From NCBI GenBank assembly GCA_001790095.1, contig MGBH01000001.1, forward strand, positions 870,001 through 902,000: a DNA stretch of 32,000 nt, written 5' to 3'. The notes under the pieces are model-generated. The model searched no databases, was not told where the DNA came from, and saw nothing but the letters and a program-made list of their open reading frames with translations. Each line of letters opens with the position of its first letter. The first letter of the stretch is position 1. A program made the translations under genes and the position numbers. The DNA is from Candidatus Saccharimonadota bacterium (GTDB taxonomy: Bacteria; Patescibacteriota; Microgenomatia; UBA1406; GWC2-37-13). Shown here one piece after another: positions 1-11,825 of the stretch.

Positions 1-2440
1 TCTCGCCGTTTGTCATACCGGTTGCGACCGTATAATGAGCATCACTCTGATATGTTCCCAGTGTCTCAGGGTCAGCTGCAGCGTTGCTTCCAAAATACAC
101 ATAATATCCGTCAAGTCCTGTCTCTGTATCAGTCACTCCGGACCAAGAAAAATATGGATTTCGATAATTGTAACTTTGTCCAGAAGTTAAGGATGTGCCA
201 CTATTGGAAGAATAACCCGAAACGCTTAAACTTCCCGTATCAGGAGCAGTTGTATCTGAGTCATAGTTTATCGTAAAGTCAGATAAGGTCGGACTGTCGG
301 TCCCATCCCCAGTTAATACAGCTTTTATCTGAATAAAGCGTGAAGGACTTGAGGTAACCACTCCTCCTGAGATCTCTTCCCAATTACTCCATGTAGTCTG
401 ATTACTTGACGTACGTGAATAATATACTATATTTGTACCTGCCGGCTTTGTCTCTGTATAAGCGAATTCACCAAACGCGGTCGCATAAGTTAAATCATAG
501 ACCGGCGAGCTCCATGCACCTGTTGTTTGATACACGTTACCGGCAGGTGGAGTATATTTCCAGAATCCTCCATCATATCCTTGATAAGCATAGACCTTAC
601 CTTCATAATAAGTCAAACTTCCACCCCACCGTATCATGGCTGGCAGATCCGCCACACGCTCCCAGATGCTTTTGCTTATTGAATAGCGGTAAAACCTCCT
701 CCCCCAAATATCATTTTCTCCACCCACCTGTGCATAGATATAATCGCCTCCATCATAAGTCATACCTCCTCCGTAATAGGATCCAACAGGTAGTGACGGA
801 AGCTCTTCCCAACCGTTGGTAGTCTCATGATATCTCCAAAATCTGCCTCTTTGATATCCTTGCATTACGTACGTATACATACCAGCCTGTGCCATGCCTG
901 AGCCGCGATAAGTACCTTCCGGTACTAAAGCTTTTTCAATCCATGTATTTCCAACCGCATCATAACGATAAAACTGAGCTCCCCCTCCTCCACGAAGCGC
1001 CCAAATAGTATTGCTACTTGATGAAGCTATCATGTTTGAGCCGTCACCTAATGTAAGCGTAGGACTTGTCAAACCACTCGTTGTCCAATTATTTGCAGCA
1101 GGAGGATTATATCTATAAATAGCATTACCATTACTTCCCCTATTAAGATATAATGCATTATTTACGTACGCAAGAGATGTACCATAATAGCCAAGAGTTA
1201 CTCCTGCTGCAGGAAGTGTAGTCCACGTATTTGTTGCGATCGTGTATTTATAACAAGTCTGAGTATTTTGGCCACGACACATATAGATATTTCCTTCTCC
1301 ATCTGACTCTATACTCTTGCCCGTTGCCCATGCATTTGCAGGAGGCCCTGCCACTGCATTGCTGTAGGAGTTGTTTGAGGGATAATAATAAACAAACTCG
1401 CTTAGACCTATCTGCATAATGATTCTGCTGTTTTCCGAGTCATATGCCAGCGCACCATAGGATGTAGAATATGGTAAGTCCGCTTTTGACTCCCATTGAT
1501 TATTTGTTGCATTATATCTATATAGTGTTTTTGTTCCCGCCCCCCTCATAGTATAAATATCTTGACCTATCATAACTGCATTTACTGCGGTCGACAAAGA
1601 TCCATCAAGCGGAAGGTTTGCCCGCTGCAGCCATGAGGGAGAAGGAGTAGTCACATCAAGGCGGTATAATCTGTCCGGACTACCCCAGTCAGTGAGAAAA
1701 TAGAGGTATTGGCTTCCATCGTATACCAAATCACAATATGTTTGACAATATACGCTTGCTGGAGTAATCGCATCCCAACCTTTTGTGCTTATAGTATAAC
1801 GCCATAGATCATAATAACCATTGCCGCGCCATGCATATATGGTGTCATTACCCACATATTCGAGCCTTGCTCTTGCACCCATATAAGCCGGAGTATTGGT
1901 AAGATAGCTCCATGTATCAGTCGGTATGTCGTACTTCAAAAAGTAACGGGAAAGATTGGTAGTTGATGTACGGGTAGCAAATACCCATATAGTATCTGTT
2001 CCGTTGGTCGTTGCGTCAACAACCTCATAGGGCTGCAAAGGCATGTAGGATAATTCCTTCCACTCCTTCGTATCGGAGTCATATCTCATAAACTGCCCTA
2101 TTGCTCTATTTCTGAATGTGTAGAGGAACTGATTCACTTTTATCATTTTGTTGACAGGATATACGTAGTGATTGAGGCTTGCAGGACCTGTTGCATCCCA
2201 AGATCCAAGATCAAGAGATAGTTTAAGATTCCCTGAAGAAGTTGCAACATCAATTTCGTTATTTTCGAATTTTCCAGCCATCCAGTCAGACTGACTGGTG
2301 ATAGCCCGTGCAGCTCCTAAAGATGGAGTTGCGTATTTTGGCCCCCATACCAATATCCCCTGCAAAAGGACAAGCAGGACTAACTGAAGAATGATTATTC
2401 TTCGTCCGTATTTTTTAAATCGTTTTATGATTTTTTTCAT
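1..2440 (-). CDS. secreted Kelch-like beta-propeller repeat protein (C-terminus runs off the window start)
   Basis: Absent from the ORF track because it stays open to position 1. ATG at 2440-2438 gives MKKIIKRFKKYGRRIIILQLVLLVLLQGILVWG (signal/TM). The frame was checked by hand at both ends (positions 61-2 read ...LGTYQSDAHYTVATGMTNGE) with no stops seen. Repeated ~50-aa units rich in Y/W/G (e.g. YRYN..NxW, IYxxxG) are typical of Kelch/propeller blades. The start lies 2 nt after the stop of the upstream gene. Confidence 0.6.
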   Translation of the reverse strand, partial: MKKIIKRFKKYGRRIIILQLVLLVLLQGILVWGPKYATPSLGAARAITSQSDWMAGKFENNEIDVATSSGNLKLSLDLGSWDATGPASLNHYVYPVNKMIKVNQFLYTFRNRAIGQFMRYDSDTKEWKELSYMPLQPYEVVDATTNGTDTIWVFATRTSTTNLSRYFLKYDIPTDTWSYLTNTPAYMGARARLEYVGNDTIYAWRGNGYYDLWRYTISTKGWDAITPASVYCQTYCDLVYDGSQYLYFLTDWGSPDRLYRLDVTTPSPSWLQRANLPLDGSLSTAVNAVMIGQDIYTMRGAGTKTLYRYNATNNQWESKADLPYSTSYGALAYDSENSRIIMQIGLSEFVYYYPSNNSYSNAVAGPPANAWATGKSIESDGEGNIYMCRGQNTQTCYKYTIATNTWTTLPAAGVTLGYYGTSLAYVNNALYLNRGSNGNAIYRYNPPAANNWTTSGLTSPTLTLGDGSNMIASSSSNTIWALRGGGGAQFYRYDAVGNTWIEKALVPEGTYRGSGMAQAGMYTYVMQGYQRGRFWRYHETTNGWEELPSLPVGSYYGGGMTYDGGDYIYAQVGGENDIWGRRFYRYSISKSIWERVADLPAMIRWGGSLTYYEGKVYAYQGYDGGFWKYTPPAGNVYQTTGAWSSPVYDLTYATAFGEFAYTETKPAGTNIVYYSRTSSNQTTWSNWEEISGGVVTSSPSRFIQIKAVLTGDGTDSPTLSDFTINYDSDTTAPDTGSLSVSGYSSNSGTSLTSGQSYNYRNPYFSWSGVTDTETGLDGYYVYFGSNAAADPETLGTYQSDAHYTVATGMTNGE

Positions 2441-2442
2441 CT

Positions 2443-3129
2443 TTATCTACCCAATGGCAAAGGAGGAGGTAGGATAACTGCACCTCCCTGATCTCCCGGA
2501 TCTATATATTTCCCTTCTATATACATGCCTAAATTAAAATCAACCATTTCTCCACCTGGTAACCATCTGTTAAAGTTGTTTTTGAAATCTGTAAATCCAA
2601 CCGCAAGCATTCTAAAACTCATTCTGTTTTTGGTTAAAAAAGAAGCTAACTTTTTGCCCATAGTCGCATCTTGCCAGTATCCATAAATAACGGCCATTTT
2701 CTTTCCGCTCATCACCTTTTCAAACTGTTTGACCCAATCATTCATCATTACCTGTGTCTCATATGCTCTTTTATAATCTTGATAAAGGGGGATATTGACC
2801 GCTCCCTTTATGTGGCTTGCTGTATATTCCTCTTCTGAGCGATAATCAACTATTATCCAATCACTATTTTTATCATCAATTACCTTCTTCACCACAAACG
2901 GATCAATATATTGATCAGTATCACTACTCAAGAACTCTTTTTCTAGATCCAGGTGATTTTTTTTGTTTAGTTGAAAAGGATTTTTGATCGTTATTTTTTT
3001 ATTTAAAGCCAAAATAAAAACAAGAGTTATGGCAAAACTTATCAAACTAATACTTACTAAAAACAGCCCATTGCCCCTGCCCGATGACACCAATTCCTTA
3101 TTCTTTATTCTTTGTACTTTCTTTTGCAT
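2443..3129 (-). CDS. membrane-anchored rhodanese-like domain protein (catalytic Cys apparently absent)
   Basis: N-terminal TM (LFLVSISLISFAITLVFILAL). Rhodanese-like core DWIIVDYRSEEEYTASHIKGAVNIPLY. The expected active-site loop reads AVIYGYWQDATMGKK, with G where the Cys normally sits. Confidence 0.55.
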   Translation of the reverse strand: MQKKVQRIKNKELVSSGRGNGLFLVSISLISFAITLVFILALNKKITIKNPFQLNKKNHLDLEKEFLSSDTDQYIDPFVVKKVIDDKNSDWIIVDYRSEEEYTASHIKGAVNIPLYQDYKRAYETQVMMNDWVKQFEKVMSGKKMAVIYGYWQDATMGKKLASFLTKNRMSFRMLAVGFTDFKNNFNRWLPGGEMVDFNLGMYIEGKYIDPGDQGGAVILPPPLPLGR

Positions 3130-3141
3130 ATTTGATATGTA

Positions 3142-3447
3142 TTATTTAATATTCAACAATTCCCTCGTAATTTGCAACAGCTTTTCTTTTGAGATTAGCT
3201 TATCATTCAGCTTCCATCTTAACCCGTGCCCATCCTCACTCCTTCCCCAAGGAAGCACTAGATGCTCCCCGCTTATTACCTGCCGGGACAATGCAGAAAA
3301 AACGCCTCCCAAAGCCTTGCCTTCTTTACCTAACTCCTTTGATGTAGCAGTTGAGACGATGATACCATCCTCGCTTTTTGCTAATAAAAAAAGAGCTCGA
3401 AGTTGACTCGGGCTTAATCGATAAAGGCGGCTCTCGGTAGGACTCAT
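3142..3447 (-). CDS. small hypothetical protein, possibly winged-helix DNA binding
   Basis: 101-aa ORF, first gene of the 3447->1 minus-strand string. The helix-turn-helix-plus-wing pattern (SPSQLRALFLLAK...LGGVFSALSRQ...LVLPWGRSEDGHGLRWKL) was judged by eye only. Confidence 0.4.
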   Translation of the reverse strand: MSPTESRLYRLSPSQLRALFLLAKSEDGIIVSTATSKELGKEGKALGGVFSALSRQVISGEHLVLPWGRSEDGHGLRWKLNDKLISKEKLLQITRELLNIK

Positions 3448-5712: not shown

Positions 5713-7175
5713 GTGATAATCGCACTATTACTTTTGCATTTTATCTTGTCTTTGGGCTTTTTATATTGCTTCTTCTCATCGTTTACTTTGTATCACTCCC
5801 TTTGAAAAGCCGCGCCTCCGCAGGCACCATAACTATAAAGATCCAAGCGCAGGGAAATCATAAGGATAACGATCAATTAGGTGCACAAATAGATTTTTAT
5901 AATGGCCCAGACAAAGTATATGAAGAACCAAACGCAACTTTTACTTATCTAAATAATACATACACAACAGACATTGTCCTGCCGTCTGATTTTAACTACC
6001 AAGACCGATATGCGCTGTTTATCAAACCTGAGAAACATCAGGGACGGATATTTTGCACTACCCAAGTCACTGGCTCCATATGTACTGTTCCGCAGTTTAT
6101 CTTTTTTGCCAATGGCAACAGCATCGACCTTTCTCCTTTTCTTTTTTATGCAGGAGATGTTCTACCTGCAAATGGAAAAATCGATGCGCTTGATATGTCA
6201 CTTATCATGAAAGATTTAGGAAAGACAGCTCTCGAAGCACAGTCAACAGACCTAAATAATGATCAGATCGTTGATGTTGTAGATTATTCACTCGCTCTTT
6301 ATTCTTTATCTCACAATATATCAGATGATCAAATTAAGCTTATCGCTCCCCCGCCCATAACATCGTCAATTCAGCCCATCACACCAACCGATACTGCATC
6401 TCCATCTCCTACCCTTGCTTCAACGCCTACTCCATCTCCCTCCGTTGCCCCATCTCCCATCGTAACACCTACTCTCCTCCCTTCCCCAACCCCCCTTCCA
6501 ACAGCCACACCTATCCCAAGACTAGGGAAAGACTGTGTGAACGGCACAGATAAGATCACGCAGTCAATCAACAGTGACTGGGAACTCAACGTATTACCCA
6601 TTCCTTATCGTGATACAAACAGTCAGTATAGATGTGTCCCTGCTGAACATATAGTCCTTCATTGGAGTGGGAGTTCATCCTTTCGTGGAAATGGAGCTAC
6701 CTGGGGGACTTTAAACACAAGAAATCGTATGTGTGGACTGGCAATTGATAATAAAGAGATACTGCAGATGTCCAATTTTTATGATGACAAGGTTACGTGG
6801 GAAGGATGCTCTGCACTTGATAATGCGATAAATATCGAGATAAACGGAACGCAGTTTGACCTTTGGTACAACAAGGCTTGCCAGATTGTAAATCCGACAT
6901 CAAACAATGCGCTCTCCTCCGGTGAATTAGAGAAGAAAAAGCAGGAGACTGCAACAGAGTATGGAATCTCACCTAATGTCCTTGATTGGGAAAATGAAAG
7001 ATATGTCTCAATCATGGAAGAACAGGAAGAAAGGGTGCTTAGCGCAATACAGTATCTTTTTATGTACTATGATATTCCGAAAGAAAATGTTACCGGCCAT
7101 TTTAATGTAGATTCAGGAACAGGAAAACCTGATCCCGGCCCGCGCTTTCTTGAATGCATTAAGAAAAAGCTATAA
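5709..7175 (+). CDS. cell-surface N-acetylmuramoyl-L-alanine amidase (Amidase_2/PGRP type) with dockerin-like repeats and Pro/Thr/Ser linker
   Basis: N-terminal TM. Two EF-hand/dockerin-like repeats (GDVLPANGKIDALDMSLIMKDL; DLNNDQIVDVVDYSLALYSL). PT/S linker (PITPTDTASPSPTLASTPTPSPSVAPSPIVTPTLLPSPTPLPTATP). C-terminal amidase_2 motifs: HIVLHWSG, NIEING, GHFNVDSGTGKPDPGPRF. Confidence 0.7.
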   Translation: MSDNRTITFAFYLVFGLFILLLLIVYFVSLPLKSRASAGTITIKIQAQGNHKDNDQLGAQIDFYNGPDKVYEEPNATFTYLNNTYTTDIVLPSDFNYQDRYALFIKPEKHQGRIFCTTQVTGSICTVPQFIFFANGNSIDLSPFLFYAGDVLPANGKIDALDMSLIMKDLGKTALEAQSTDLNNDQIVDVVDYSLALYSLSHNISDDQIKLIAPPPITSSIQPITPTDTASPSPTLASTPTPSPSVAPSPIVTPTLLPSPTPLPTATPIPRLGKDCVNGTDKITQSINSDWELNVLPIPYRDTNSQYRCVPAEHIVLHWSGSSSFRGNGATWGTLNTRNRMCGLAIDNKEILQMSNFYDDKVTWEGCSALDNAINIEINGTQFDLWYNKACQIVNPTSNNALSSGELEKKKQETATEYGISPNVLDWENERYVSIMEEQEERVLSAIQYLFMYYDIPKENVTGHFNVDSGTGKPDPGPRFLECIKKKL

Positions 7176-7176
7176 T

Positions 7177-8097
7177 ATGAAGATAAAAAGCATAAAAGTA
7201 TCCGGCTCCCTTATATTAGCCGCATTTGCCCTTGTTTTTACCGGTATCCTTGGAGGTGTTGCTCCCATATTTTTGAAAGTAGCTTTAAGGGAGTTTACCC
7301 CTTTTGAGATCGTATTTACCCGTTTTTTCTTTGCATTCATAATCCTTTTTCCAATACTTCTTGCAAAAAAAGGTTTTCGCGTGTATAAAAAAGACTTCGT
7401 CCGTATCTTATTTGCATCGCTTTTTTTTGCAGGAAATATATTTCTTTTTATTTTTGGCCTTCAATATACAACAAGCATATCGTCTCAGCTCTTATACCTT
7501 CTCACTCCTACTCTTGTCATCATCCTTTCTTTTTTCTTTTTAAAAACACGCGTACAGATTCATCATCTTATAAGCATAATAACTGGTCTTTTAGGCGGAG
7601 TCATACTGATTGGAAGAAATACTACATCCGTTGAACTTATAAACTCACTTGGCACAGCATATGGGAATCTCATCGTTTTGGGAGCGGTATGTTCGTGGGC
7701 AGGATATATCATGGTCACTAAAAAACTGAGCTCTCTCTATTCACCTCTCTTTCTTCTTGCCTGCAACTGTTTTGTGACTGCGGGCCTTTCCGTATTTTTC
7801 CTTTTGAGGCAGCATAACAATATCTTTTCAATATACCATGGAGCTTCTTTGCAGGCTATACTTAGTTTGATTGCGCTCATCACCCTAAACTCCATTGGCT
7901 TTTTCTTTTTGTTTCAATGGGCGATAAAAAGAGTATCTCCTTTTATGGCATCAACCACTACCTATTTCGGACCCCTCTCTGCTGCTTTTTTTGGGGTATT
8001 GCTGTTGGGTGAAAAAATTACAATTCCTCTTATAACCAGTGCCTTTTTTATCTGCATTTCTGCTTTTTTTACGTTCGTTAATAAGATTAAGACTTAG
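7177..8097 (+). CDS. EamA/DMT family transporter
   Basis: About ten hydrophobic helices with the two-EamA-repeat layout. ATG at 7177 follows the upstream stop (7173-7175); the track start at 7150 is a TTG inside the previous gene. Confidence 0.7.
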   Translation: MKIKSIKVSGSLILAAFALVFTGILGGVAPIFLKVALREFTPFEIVFTRFFFAFIILFPILLAKKGFRVYKKDFVRILFASLFFAGNIFLFIFGLQYTTSISSQLLYLLTPTLVIILSFFFLKTRVQIHHLISIITGLLGGVILIGRNTTSVELINSLGTAYGNLIVLGAVCSWAGYIMVTKKLSSLYSPLFLLACNCFVTAGLSVFFLLRQHNNIFSIYHGASLQAILSLIALITLNSIGFFFLFQWAIKRVSPFMASTTTYFGPLSAAFFGVLLLGEKITIPLITSAFFICISAFFTFVNKIKT

Positions 8098-9352: not shown

Positions 9353-9724
9353 TTAGAGCTTGTTTTTTATATCGTCAATGTCTTTATGTATTTGTTTTTT
9401 TAGCTCATCCATACTGCTAAAAGATTTTATTTCTCGTATAAAAGAATTAATTGAAAATGTTACCTCTTCTCCATATATGTTTTTATTAAAGTCTAAAATG
9501 TGTATTTCCAAGATGGGTACTGTCTCTTTATGTAACGTCCGTGGTCCAAAATAAAGTGCTCCTTGATATGTTTTGTCTTTATAGATGACCGTTGAAGAAT
9601 AAATACCCTGTCTCATAAGGCTTGGAAGGATATGGGGATCAAGATTCACTGTTGGAAATCCTATCTGTCTCCCATTCTGAGCTCCCACTACTACTTTTGC
9701 CTTATACCATGTTACGTTAGTCAT
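9353..9724 (-). CDS. ribF: monofunctional riboflavin kinase (RibF C-terminal-domain type)
   Basis: GAQNGRQIGFPTVNL, GIYSS..., LEIHILDFNKNIYGEEVTF and FSSMDELKKQIHKDI match the riboflavin kinase domain. Only 123 aa, so no FAD-synthetase domain. Overlaps the upstream transporter stop by 8 nt. Confidence 0.85.
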   Translation of the reverse strand: MTNVTWYKAKVVVGAQNGRQIGFPTVNLDPHILPSLMRQGIYSSTVIYKDKTYQGALYFGPRTLHKETVPILEIHILDFNKNIYGEEVTFSINSFIREIKSFSSMDELKKQIHKDIDDIKNKL

Positions 9725-10622
9725 TTTTGAGCGTTGCTACCTTATAGATGGAAAATAGAACCACGATCGTCCCTAATATTTGAGTAACTGATAGCGGGTT
9801 CTTAAAATATACAAAATCGATAATCACAGCCGAGGCAGGAAAAACAAGCTCGCAGATCGCACTTACTTTCCCCTCAGTTTTTCTCAGACCAAAATAATAG
9901 ATAAGCTGTGCGACCATACCGGTTGTCAGAGTGATCGCAAGCAAAGTCCCCCACTGTGATAGGGTTACATTTGCCAAGGATGCGGTCTGCCCAAAAATAA
10001 CAAGAATGATAAGGGCAAAAATGGGAGCTACCAGAAAACGAAGATATGTCGCTGTGATAAATGAAACCTTTCTTAAAAGTATCTTAGAAAATGAGGTCGT
10101 TGATCCCCACATGACTCCAGCCAGTAGAGCAAAGATCGCTGCAATGAGAGTATCATTGCCGGGCGTAACATTTATGCGAAGATCTTTAAATGTGACAAAA
10201 TAAGATGCGACTATGGCAAGGATTGCCCAAACAAAGAATTTCTTTGATATTTTTTCTCTTAGTAAGATCGCGGCCATACTTATGGCCCAGATAGGTTGAA
10301 GTTGCTGCAAAAGCACGACCACAGAAAATTGAATGAAGTTAACCTTAGCTAGGGCTGCAGTATAAAAGATAGTTCCCAGAGCCCCGGAGAATAATCCAAG
10401 TATCCCCACGACCAACCACTCTTTTGCGTTAAGCACCCTTATTTCTTTTAGCACACGCTTCAAATAGAAAGGTGTCATGAGCACAAGACCAACTACATGC
10501 TCCAAACAAACGACTGTTGCAGCGGGTAATGAAAAAAGACTTCGGCGAAGCAACCCATCAACACTCCATAAAAAGGATGCAATCATGATAAAAATTGGAC
10601 CTGTTTTATTGGCCTTTTTCAT
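9717..10622 (-). CDS. EamA/DMT family transporter, candidate riboflavin importer (ImpX/RibN-like)
   Basis: Polytopic EamA-type protein. ATG at 10622 (MKKANKTGPIFIMIASFLWS); the track extension to 10706 runs through the riboswitch. It lies immediately downstream of an FMN riboswitch and is translationally coupled to riboflavin kinase. Confidence 0.7.
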   Translation of the reverse strand: MKKANKTGPIFIMIASFLWSVDGLLRRSLFSLPAATVVCLEHVVGLVLMTPFYLKRVLKEIRVLNAKEWLVVGILGLFSGALGTIFYTAALAKVNFIQFSVVVLLQQLQPIWAISMAAILLREKISKKFFVWAILAIVASYFVTFKDLRINVTPGNDTLIAAIFALLAGVMWGSTTSFSKILLRKVSFITATYLRFLVAPIFALIILVIFGQTASLANVTLSQWGTLLAITLTTGMVAQLIYYFGLRKTEGKVSAICELVFPASAVIIDFVYFKNPLSVTQILGTIVVLFSIYKVATLKND

Positions 10623-10642
10623 AAAAAAACCCCTTTCGGGGC
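10623..10642 (-). terminator. FMN riboswitch expression platform: GCCCC-GAAA-GGGG hairpin + U7 abutting the start codon
   Basis: The minus strand reads UGCCCCGAAAGGGGUUUUUUUAUG. CCCCGAAAG is complementary to CUUUCGGGG on the 5' side of the aptamer P1. The GGGG could also act as the ribosome binding site. Confidence 0.5.
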
Positions 10643-10656
10643 AAAAAAATAACAAC

Positions 10657-10776
10657 ATTCTTTCTTTATACCCGACTATAACGGTCGCTGTGGGAGTTAC
10701 ACCCACTCATCCTCGCCCAAAGGGCGGGTCGTAGAGTATACTACCGATCATGAATTTCATAAAACCCCGAAAGAAT
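10657..10776 (-). promoter_or_regulatory. FMN riboswitch (RFN element)
   Basis: The minus strand reads AUUCUUUCGGGGUUUUAUGAAAUUCAUGAUCGGUAGUAUACUCUACGACCCGCCCUUUGGGCGAGGAUGAGUGGGUGUAACUCCCACAGCGACCGUUAUAGUCGGGUAUAAAGAAAGAAU. It matches RFN blocks CUUCGGGG..UGAAAUUC..ACCGGCGGU, AGCCCGC, GAU..GGUG.AAUUCC..AGCCGACAGU and AGUCUGGAU..AGAAG. P1 is UUCUUUC/GAAAGAA. Confidence 0.85.
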
Positions 10777-10823
10777 TATGTAAAGAATACGTAATATATT
10801 TAAAATATGCAAGTAGATTTATA

Positions 10824-11744
10824 CTATGTATGCAGTCTTACGGATTTTTTTCCTTCAATCGTATAACTTTTCAACTCATTCCCTACGTGCAGTCTTGTAT
10901 CTGTTTGATATATTTGTATTATCTTTTGATAGTTTGTACTTACATCAAGTGTAAGTTCAGCTACAGTATCTAATAGCTTTAGTTCTTCGCCTTTAAGCTC
11001 TGATTCCTTTTCAAATTGCTTGTCAAAAAATGCTGGATAATCCCACGGAAGAAGCTCTACTCTGTTTAAAGATGCATAATCCCGAAGAAGGTCTGCTCTG
11101 ACAAACCACAGTCCTTTAATACCGATAAGATGAACCCCATAAAGGTTTGGATCTGTTTTCTTTTTCCTACAAAGCTGCCATGCTTTTCCTGAAAGAATAA
11201 ATTCATCGTTTGTAAGATCAAAATGATTTAGGTTTGAAGAAATGTTATGATGTGCACGTTCTTTTTTACCTATCTCACTGTCAACCATAATCCACCTTCT
11301 ATCCTTATCACTCCAGTATTCACATATCCAATGATCACTAAAAAGACCCTTACGGAAATATGATGCAAATCCACAACGCAAACGTGCTGGAATATGATGT
11401 GTACGAAGTATCGAGCAAAGAAGTATGGCAAAGTCTCTGCATGAACCGATAAAACGTTTTTCTGGAGTCCGCTCGTTCGTAAGAGATGATGGATCTAATT
11501 GGTGAATAATGTGAAGAATGTCTTTAATATATCGAGTGTCTGACTCGTTTTTCCTTTGTTCAGGAAGTATCAGATTATAAAAGGGGTGCAACCCATCCCT
11601 GTGAACTATAAGGCCGTGTACAATATCACATAGGTCAGGGATTGATATCGGCAAATCTTTATAGAGGTATTGATATTCTTGCGGATCAGTAAATATACTG
11701 TGAGTGCGATAATAGAGGAGCTCTTTACTCTCATCAATATGCAT
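10824..11744 (-). CDS. transglutaminase-like cysteine protease superfamily protein
   Basis: Core Cys-His-Asp arrangement: GSCRDFAILLCSILRTHHIPARLRCGF, DHWICEYW, RWIMVDS. Confidence 0.7.
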   Translation of the reverse strand: MHIDESKELLYYRTHSIFTDPQEYQYLYKDLPISIPDLCDIVHGLIVHRDGLHPFYNLILPEQRKNESDTRYIKDILHIIHQLDPSSLTNERTPEKRFIGSCRDFAILLCSILRTHHIPARLRCGFASYFRKGLFSDHWICEYWSDKDRRWIMVDSEIGKKERAHHNISSNLNHFDLTNDEFILSGKAWQLCRKKKTDPNLYGVHLIGIKGLWFVRADLLRDYASLNRVELLPWDYPAFFDKQFEKESELKGEELKLLDTVAELTLDVSTNYQKIIQIYQTDTRLHVGNELKSYTIEGKKSVRLHT

Positions 11745-11752
11745 AAATAAGT

Positions 11753-11825
11753 GAGCCCACTGGGACTCGAACCCAGAACCAACAGCTTAAAAGGCTGCTG
11801 CTCTACCAGTTGAGCTATAGGCCCT
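11753..11825 (-). tRNA. tRNA-Lys (anticodon UUU)
   Basis: 73-nt cloverleaf folded by hand: GGGCCTA TA GCTC AACTGGTA GAGC A GCAGC CTTTTAA GCTGT TGGTT CTGGG TTCGAGT CCCAG TGGGCTC A. No encoded CCA. Confidence 0.9.

Follow-up and report, generated by a model that had tools for sequence, protein, structure and literature searches.

We describe here a two-gene unit on the minus strand of a 32,000-nucleotide stretch of contig MGBH01000001.1 (Candidatus Saccharimonadota bacterium); the whole of this stretch is referred to as the window. A flavin mononucleotide (FMN) riboswitch, or RFN element, precedes a gene for an EamA/DMT transporter and a gene for a riboflavin kinase, and together they probably make up a riboflavin salvage operon in which the riboswitch works as an OFF switch. 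The evidence for this interpretation consists of the aptamer match, two mutually exclusive leader structures, conservation and covariation of the antiterminator pairing among related leaders, homology of the transporter to the riboflavin importer ImpX, the kinase domain, and the loss of riboflavin biosynthesis from the genome. The sequence was read between 9200 and 11000 on the minus strand, and the Rfam scan covered the whole window. The source genome is one closed contig of 1,216,931 bases and is 98% complete. Two sets were used for comparison: set A, 41 genomes of the same order (the source genome, G000, and 40 relatives), and set B, the best 80 of at least 487 transporter relatives from a scan of species-representative genomes. 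The features of the operon are as follows (MFE, minimum free energy; SD, Shine–Dalgarno).

10784–10812, minus strand: candidate promoter, TTGCAT, 17-nt spacer, TATTCT; proposed from reading the sequence
10655–10778, minus strand: RFN aptamer, helices P1–P6; full-length match to RF00050
10765–10773, minus strand: switching strand CUUUCGGGG, the P1 5′ strand plus junction J1/2; MFE fold, shuffle test and covariation
10643–10654, minus strand: U-rich spacer, the UGUUGUUAUUUUUUU region; MFE structure
10629–10642, minus strand: hairpin GCCCC-GAAA-GGGGU, putative terminator and SD sequestor; terminator scan
10623–10629, minus strand: U7 tract, also the 7-nt spacer between a GGGG SD-like element and the AUG; sequence and terminator scan
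9717–10622, minus strand: predicted ImpX-type EamA/DMT riboflavin importer, 301 residues; two PF00892 domains, 117 bits, and homology to ImpX
9353–9724, minus strand: predicted monofunctional riboflavin kinase, 123 residues; PF01687, 106 bits, profile positions 8–123 of 124

The riboswitch and its two genes

When the whole 1.22 Mb genome was searched with Rfam RF00050, the sole RFN element found was that at 10655–10778 on the minus strand. In the scan of the window its score was 73.1 bits, with the gathering threshold at 66.2 (E value 6e-15, model positions 1–138), and all six helices aligned to the model. An earlier, sequence-only reading of this DNA had placed an AU-shifted RFN aptamer at 10776–10657. 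The covariance model confirmed the aptamer; its shifted character was also borne out, P2 having two non-standard pairs and junction J6/1 deviating. The RNA is predicted from its sequence to bind FMN. From the candidate promoter, transcription would begin at about 10778–10776. A consensus promoter scan did not list this promoter. Its only match near the leader (10804–10775) was rejected, as the start would fall inside P1, which is incompatible with the aptamer.

The hairpin downstream of the aptamer has five pairs, four of them G-C, closed by a GAAA loop, and is worth −8.6 kcal/mol alone. With the U7 tract it forms a G+C-rich stem followed by a U-run, as expected of a terminator, minimal in size. 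The AUG of the transporter gene (10622–10620) comes directly after U7. A longer open reading frame (ORF) started by GTG from 10706 was discarded: it runs into the aptamer, and the alignment with relatives begins at the ATG of 10622, which is therefore the start.

In the unconstrained MFE fold, CUUUCGGGG (10773–10765) pairs with CCCCGAAAG (10641–10633). The duplex amounts to −19.1 kcal/mol (z = −7.6), a value reached by none of 300 shuffled linkers; the z value for the fold of the whole leader was −3.6. With this antiterminator enforced the leader folds at −52.9 kcal/mol, equal to the MFE, and with P1 and the hairpin enforced at −46.7 kcal/mol, ligand energy not included. P1 and the antiterminator are mutually exclusive structures. 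The difference of 6 kcal/mol would have to come from ligand binding for P1 to close and the hairpin to be released. As modelled, these energetics are the usual arrangement of an OFF riboswitch. In the MFE fold without ligand, the U-rich spacer is weakly paired to the A-rich 3′ strand of P1, and it may have a functional role. Both the hairpin with U7 touching the ATG and the complementarity between the P1 5′ strand and the hairpin had been pointed out in the sequence-only reading, and both withstood the analysis. A single copy of the 12-mer CCCCGAAAGGGG is present in the genome, against 0.02 copies expected. Being unique, it belongs to the leader of the riboflavin operon, and its being a generic genome-wide terminator is ruled out.

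The mechanism that we propose is as follows. At low FMN, CUUUCGGGG would pair with CCCCGAAAG and block the small hairpin; RNA polymerase would read through, and the GGGG element would be free. The ImpX-type importer would then be made, riboflavin would enter, and the translationally coupled riboflavin kinase would trap the vitamin as FMN. At high FMN, ligand binding would close P1 and withdraw its 5′ strand, and the hairpin together with U7 would end transcription just ahead of the AUG. In transcripts that are read through, the same hairpin would conceal the SD element. Termination at the hairpin and U7 is a prediction of the model.

Identification of the transporter made use of a tblastn search of a plasmid collection, which gave one record, Fusobacterium vincentii NZ_CP084075.1 (locus L218, 1867117–1872995). 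This 2.1 Mb record bears the PLSDB label ‘plasmid pSB055A’ and a single annotated feature; it is evidently a chromosome. Within L218, an RFN element (2270–2385, 118.2 bits) is followed by an EamA ORF (2444–3382). The primers used for cloning impX (PMC4418817) match at 2025–2044 (plus strand) and 3399–3419 (minus strand), with three mismatches each, and bracket exactly the RFN element and the EamA ORF; hence, ImpX is an EamA protein. The same locus rules out a reading of the phrase ‘RFT2, a distant homolog of ImpX’ (PMC4418817) by which ImpX would lie outside the EamA proteins. Over 294 residues, the window transporter is 38% identical to the product of the bracketed ORF (E value 4e-59) and is therefore of the ImpX type. 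ImpX rescued an Escherichia coli ribB mutant, a riboflavin auxotroph, at low riboflavin (PMC4418817), and COG0697 genes are listed among those commonly tied to FMN riboswitches (PMC6298564). The earlier statement that EamA/DMT riboflavin importers under RFN control are established holds for ImpX. NCBIfam and the protein atlas gave only generic EamA/DMT names for the window transporter; riboflavin transport by the 301-residue protein, in its direction and substrate, is a prediction from homology.

The kinase gene overlaps the transporter gene by 8 nt, ATGACTAA, and encodes the sole flavokinase of the genome. Its product matches the bifunctional RibF models of NCBIfam only in their C-terminal third (about residues 173–300). 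It aligns to the kinase domain of T. maritima RibF and to human and yeast RFK, with GFPTVN and LEIHILDF conserved, and would accordingly act as a riboflavin kinase. Thus the overlap and the stand-alone kinase without a flavin adenine dinucleotide (FAD) synthetase domain, both stated in the sequence-only reading, were found as described: PF01687 alone was matched, with no FAD_syn match above the cut-off.

The pairing of the two genes was examined in set B. In 19 of the 80 transporter loci, the gene was immediately preceded, in the same orientation, by an RF00050 match at or above the gathering score. A flavokinase was present within 2.5 kb in 58 loci, in the order transporter–kinase (25), kinase–transporter (26) or in other layouts (7), and four further loci were in-frame transporter–flavokinase fusions. 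The EamA–flavokinase fusions are L009:196–1449 (minus strand), L037:846–2102, L065:2501–3757, L072:2501–3775 and L073:2501–3775; the fused ORFs have 417–424 residues, with a linker of fewer than 10 residues after the last membrane helix, and one is in the genus of the window. When the C-terminal part of a fused protein was used in a word-based search, only two close fused clusters were obtained.

Lumazine synthase, 3,4-dihydroxy-2-butanone-4-phosphate (DHBP) synthase, GTP cyclohydrolase II and riboflavin synthase were searched for genome-wide, and none was found in the 98%-complete closed genome. This result, and the uniqueness of the RFN element, agree with the salvage of riboflavin that the sequence-only reading had suggested from the lack of rib genes nearby. 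Across set A, lumazine synthase was found in 3 genomes, flavokinase in 21 and the transporter in 17, and all 17 transporter-bearing genomes carry the flavokinase. Four genomes have the flavokinase without the transporter: two of these possess an RFN-controlled energy-coupling factor (ECF) component and one an RFN-controlled rib operon.

Points against the proposed salvage operon and alternative explanations

Several points weigh against a salvage operon with an OFF switch. The stem of the hairpin, with only 4–5 pairs, is at the lower limit for intrinsic terminators. At the position equivalent to A99 of the aptamer, the window has U10670, where all of the approximately 29 relatives examined have A, and P2 is weakened by two mismatches in its five pairs (five being the number in relatives also). 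EamA proteins are often exporters. No FMN adenylyltransferase was found, and no FAD_syn match above the cut-off was obtained in any of the 41 genomes. Finally, published surveys reported neither ImpX nor other facilitators outside riboflavin prototrophs (PMC4418817, PMC6593275).

The first of these points bears on the mode of control. Control might be purely translational, with the hairpin only an SD sequestor, U7 only a spacer between SD and AUG, and no termination. The shortness of the stem (four G-C pairs plus a G-U) would fit, as would the position of GGGG at a distance of 7 nt from the AUG, with no other SD-like element present. The leaders of relatives are of two types. In eight, which are plainly translational, the P1 3′ strand abuts the ATG, and the rest have a CCCCGA-type hairpin and a U-run. 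A complement of the RFN 5′ strand is present in the linker of 16 of the 18 leaders that have a linker (reached by at most 2.3% of shuffles). The two partners covary across leaders, RFN elements with CAGGG carrying CCUGA and those with CGGGG carrying CCCCGA. CCCCGAAAGGGG and the U-run are kept in L008, L009, L011, L015 and L043, and in L013, L062, L070, L078 and L082 the hairpin and U-run lie well upstream of the start codon. The CCCCGA hairpin with a run of U6–U8 stands 35–100 nt before the start codon in relatives, where masking of the SD element is impossible, and the U-run is conserved even though its distance from the AUG varies, as in L009. Such placement far from the start codon implies that the hairpin and U-run act as a terminator. 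Purely translational control is therefore unlikely. In the window the element appears to have been compacted such that the terminator hairpin also covers the GGGG element. The sequence-only reading had left the choice between transcription (U7) and translation (GGGG) open; the comparative evidence favours termination as the primary event, SD sequestration being only an add-on. Its description of the compressed platform as unusual did not stand for this lineage, since eight relatives lack a platform altogether, their P1 3′ strand meeting the ATG directly.

To examine the ligand-binding site, the contacts G10, G11, G32, A48, G62, G84, A85 and A99 (PMC6298564) were considered. Crystal numbering was transferred by way of the F. 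vincentii impX RFN element, in which G10, G11, C30, C31, G32, A48, G62, G84, A85 and G93 fall on the expected letters and A99 is the A of GGAUG. Seven of the eight contact positions are in register in the window aptamer; the equivalent of A99 is U10670, and the next base is A10669. Thus J6/1 reads G-UAUAAA in the window, compared with G-AU(G/A)AAA in relatives. A99 hydrogen-bonds the isoalloxazine ring in a base-specific manner (PMC6298564, PMC12219259).

The GGGUAUAAAGAAG junction (10668–10670, minus strand) recurs on unrelated contigs, in RFN elements of 95–101 bits and in one of 72.7 bits. An exact 22-mer of the variant junction had no match in metagenome contigs, while a 16-mer had at least 120 matches, mostly due to chance, of which five were real RFN elements. 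These loci (L112, L115, L131, L135 and L203) have otherwise canonical RFN elements of up to 101 bits. Since the identical junction is present in RFN elements of 95–101 bits with their own terminators, the variant looks tolerated. U at the A99 position is a recurrent natural variant, which may still bind FMN; perhaps A10669 takes the role of A99.

It could be argued instead that the aptamer, through altered specificity or decay, has ceased to sense FMN, and that the operon is constitutive or answers another flavin, for example riboflavin. The substitution falls on the sole position that contacts the flavin ring in a base-specific way (PMC6298564), and the weakened P2 points the same way. Moreover, FMN-riboswitch variants with altered specificity are known upstream of transporter genes (PMC6298564), and other RFN elements with the U variant likewise precede transporters, namely an ECF S component (L135) and an EamA gene (L115). 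As against this, the window aptamer keeps in register the five G positions contacting the phosphate and ribityl moieties as well as the two stacking A positions, and it is at exactly these positions that the known specificity variants differ (PMC6298564). The recurrence of the junction in high-scoring RFN elements with terminators also argues against decay or altered sensing, as do the intact antiterminator and switch logic of the window leader, and shutting off an importer and a kinase in response to riboflavin would make little sense physiologically. We consider this explanation quite improbable. The narrower proposition, that the J6/1 variant GGGUAUAAAG (U at A99) alters the specificity of the aptamer rather than being a tolerated polymorphism, is very doubtful. 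In the sample, RFN elements with U at A99 occur only before transporter genes, viz. the window operon, the EamA gene of L115 and the ECF S-component genes of the L135 group. If the proposition were true, switches carrying the U variant would sense a flavin other than FMN.

It is highly improbable that the EamA protein is a flavin exporter or transports some unrelated compound and stands next to the riboswitch only by coincidence. Many characterised EamA proteins are exporters, and the only NCBIfam match was sub-threshold, to a generic carboxylate/amino acid/amine transporter model. An OFF switch, on the other hand, suits an importer and not an exporter of surplus flavin, and the protein is homologous to a validated importer (ImpX; PMC4418817). 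In 51 of 80 loci its gene adjoins that of a riboflavin kinase, the two are fused in five genomes, and the genome has no other recognised source of riboflavin.

Flavin supply in the order and the surroundings of the operon

Returning to the salvage operon, RF00050 matched 11 of the 41 genomes in set A, and in 8 the score exceeded the gathering threshold. In relatives, the genes downstream of the RFN element are as follows.

G002, G005, G037: the same transporter, then the kinase
G003: fused transporter–kinase, 417 residues
G020, G022: transporter alone
G007, G010: ribE-ribH-ribBA-like genes
G008, G012: ECF S component and ATPase

Behind the RFN element, G007 (L004) and G010 (L005) carry genes for riboflavin synthase and lumazine synthase and a DHBP-synthase-like gene, so that the family is not entirely devoid of riboflavin biosynthesis. 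G007 has 6% contamination, which bears on the origin of its rib genes. In G008 (L010) and G012 (L012), no gap separates the P1 3′ strand from the ATG of the next gene, which encodes an ECF S component of about 190 residues and is followed by that of an ATP-binding cassette (ABC) ATPase; the ECF_trnsprt match of the S component, 29 bits, is just below the cut-off.

The search for an FMN adenylyltransferase, which the sequence-only reading had put forward as a check, returned none: FAD_syn remained below the cut-off, and PF01507, the eukaryote-type FMN adenylyltransferase family, gave no match. The flavin pathway is therefore incomplete as reconstructed. The genome has three cytidylyltransferase-like proteins: NadD, a PPAT fusion inside the window, and a 174-residue protein (G000:C1:166161–166685). 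The last was considered as a RibL-like FMN adenylyltransferase and rejected, as it is present in 40 of the 41 genomes regardless of flavokinase and matches best to the sugar and glycerol-phosphate nucleotidyltransferase families. ThyX gave no match in the genome. An FAD-dependent thioredoxin reductase (TrxB) is present in the source genome and in 38 of the 41 genomes of the order, and all eight genomes of family f3 are without flavokinase. There is thus a gap in the supply of FAD: an FAD enzyme in 38 of 41 genomes, an FMN adenylyltransferase recognised in none, and flavokinase absent from half.

The names of set B are mostly those of Patescibacteria, and the nearest transporter relative among its matches is from a metagenome-assembled genome (MAG) labelled Candidatus Roizmanbacteria. 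Some carry the labels Gammaproteobacteria or Pseudomonadales. Many Third Party Annotation (TPA)-assembled MAG contigs named ‘uncultured Gammaproteobacteria’ or ‘Pseudomonadales’ (L017, L019, L020, L022, L023 and others) have a transporter of the Patescibacteria type, 51–60% identical to that of the window, and these labels are probably wrong.

Around the operon, a tRNA gene is located at 11752–11824 (minus strand); its anticodon loop, read from the alignment, is CUUUUAA, hence UUU/Lys. Downstream of it, ahead of the promoter region of the riboswitch, is a transglutaminase-like gene (10824–11744). A second EamA gene (7150–8097, plus strand, 315 residues) lies 1.6 kb away on the opposite strand. 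It has weak YddG-like matches, is without an RFN element, and is a distant relative of the riboswitch-controlled transporter.

Comparison with known systems

The literature searched yielded no study of Patescibacteria or the candidate phyla radiation (CPR) dealing with riboflavin transporters or FMN riboswitches. The system is nevertheless of a known type, an FMN riboswitch with an ImpX-type importer, to which a kinase partner typical of the lineage is added. ImpX is said to have been predicted as a riboflavin transporter by Vitreschak in 2002, and the Fusobacterium impX riboswitch is the RNA of PDB 3F2Q. As with ImpX of F. nucleatum and F. vincentii, the RFN element lies directly upstream of a permease of about 300 residues with two EamA domains, and the design is that of an OFF switch. 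Unlike ImpX, which is usually monocistronic and reported only from prototrophs (PMC4418817, PMC6593275), the window gene is co-transcribed and translationally coupled with a kinase gene. Its genome, unlike those of ImpX hosts, is without riboflavin biosynthesis, and the transporter is the only recognisable source of riboflavin. The finding would thus extend ImpX from prototrophs, so far its only reported hosts, to an auxotroph in which it is seemingly the sole source of the vitamin.

RibN of alpha- and gamma-Proteobacteria is likewise an EamA transporter (PF00892, PMC10557607), a likeness known from the shared domain alone, and in alpha-Proteobacteria it too is under FMN riboswitch control (PMC4418817). 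RibN has been reported only from Proteobacteria (PMC4418817), and the demonstrated relative of the window transporter is ImpX.

The switch itself resembles those of B. subtilis ribD and ypaA (ribU), in which FMN closes P1 and frees a terminator or a sequestor. The G-rich 5′ part of RFN elements is reportedly complementary to the left arm of the terminator (Vitreschak 2002, Winkler 2002). Unlike the B. subtilis platforms, that of the window is a GNRA hairpin of 4–5 bp, in which one element would serve as terminator, SD mask and SD–AUG spacer. Knowledge of FMN riboswitches themselves is unchanged by the finding.

The closest parallel in logic is PnuC with the ribosylnicotinamide kinase NadR, where the substrate brought in by a facilitator-type importer is phosphorylated inside the cell by a partner kinase. 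The window operon would similarly import and trap, and it offers a concrete account of FMN supply in one group of ultra-small uncultured bacteria, a regulated facilitator with a trapping kinase. It differs from PnuC and NadR in its protein families and its vitamin, and in that in some Patescibacteria the importer and the kinase are one polypeptide.

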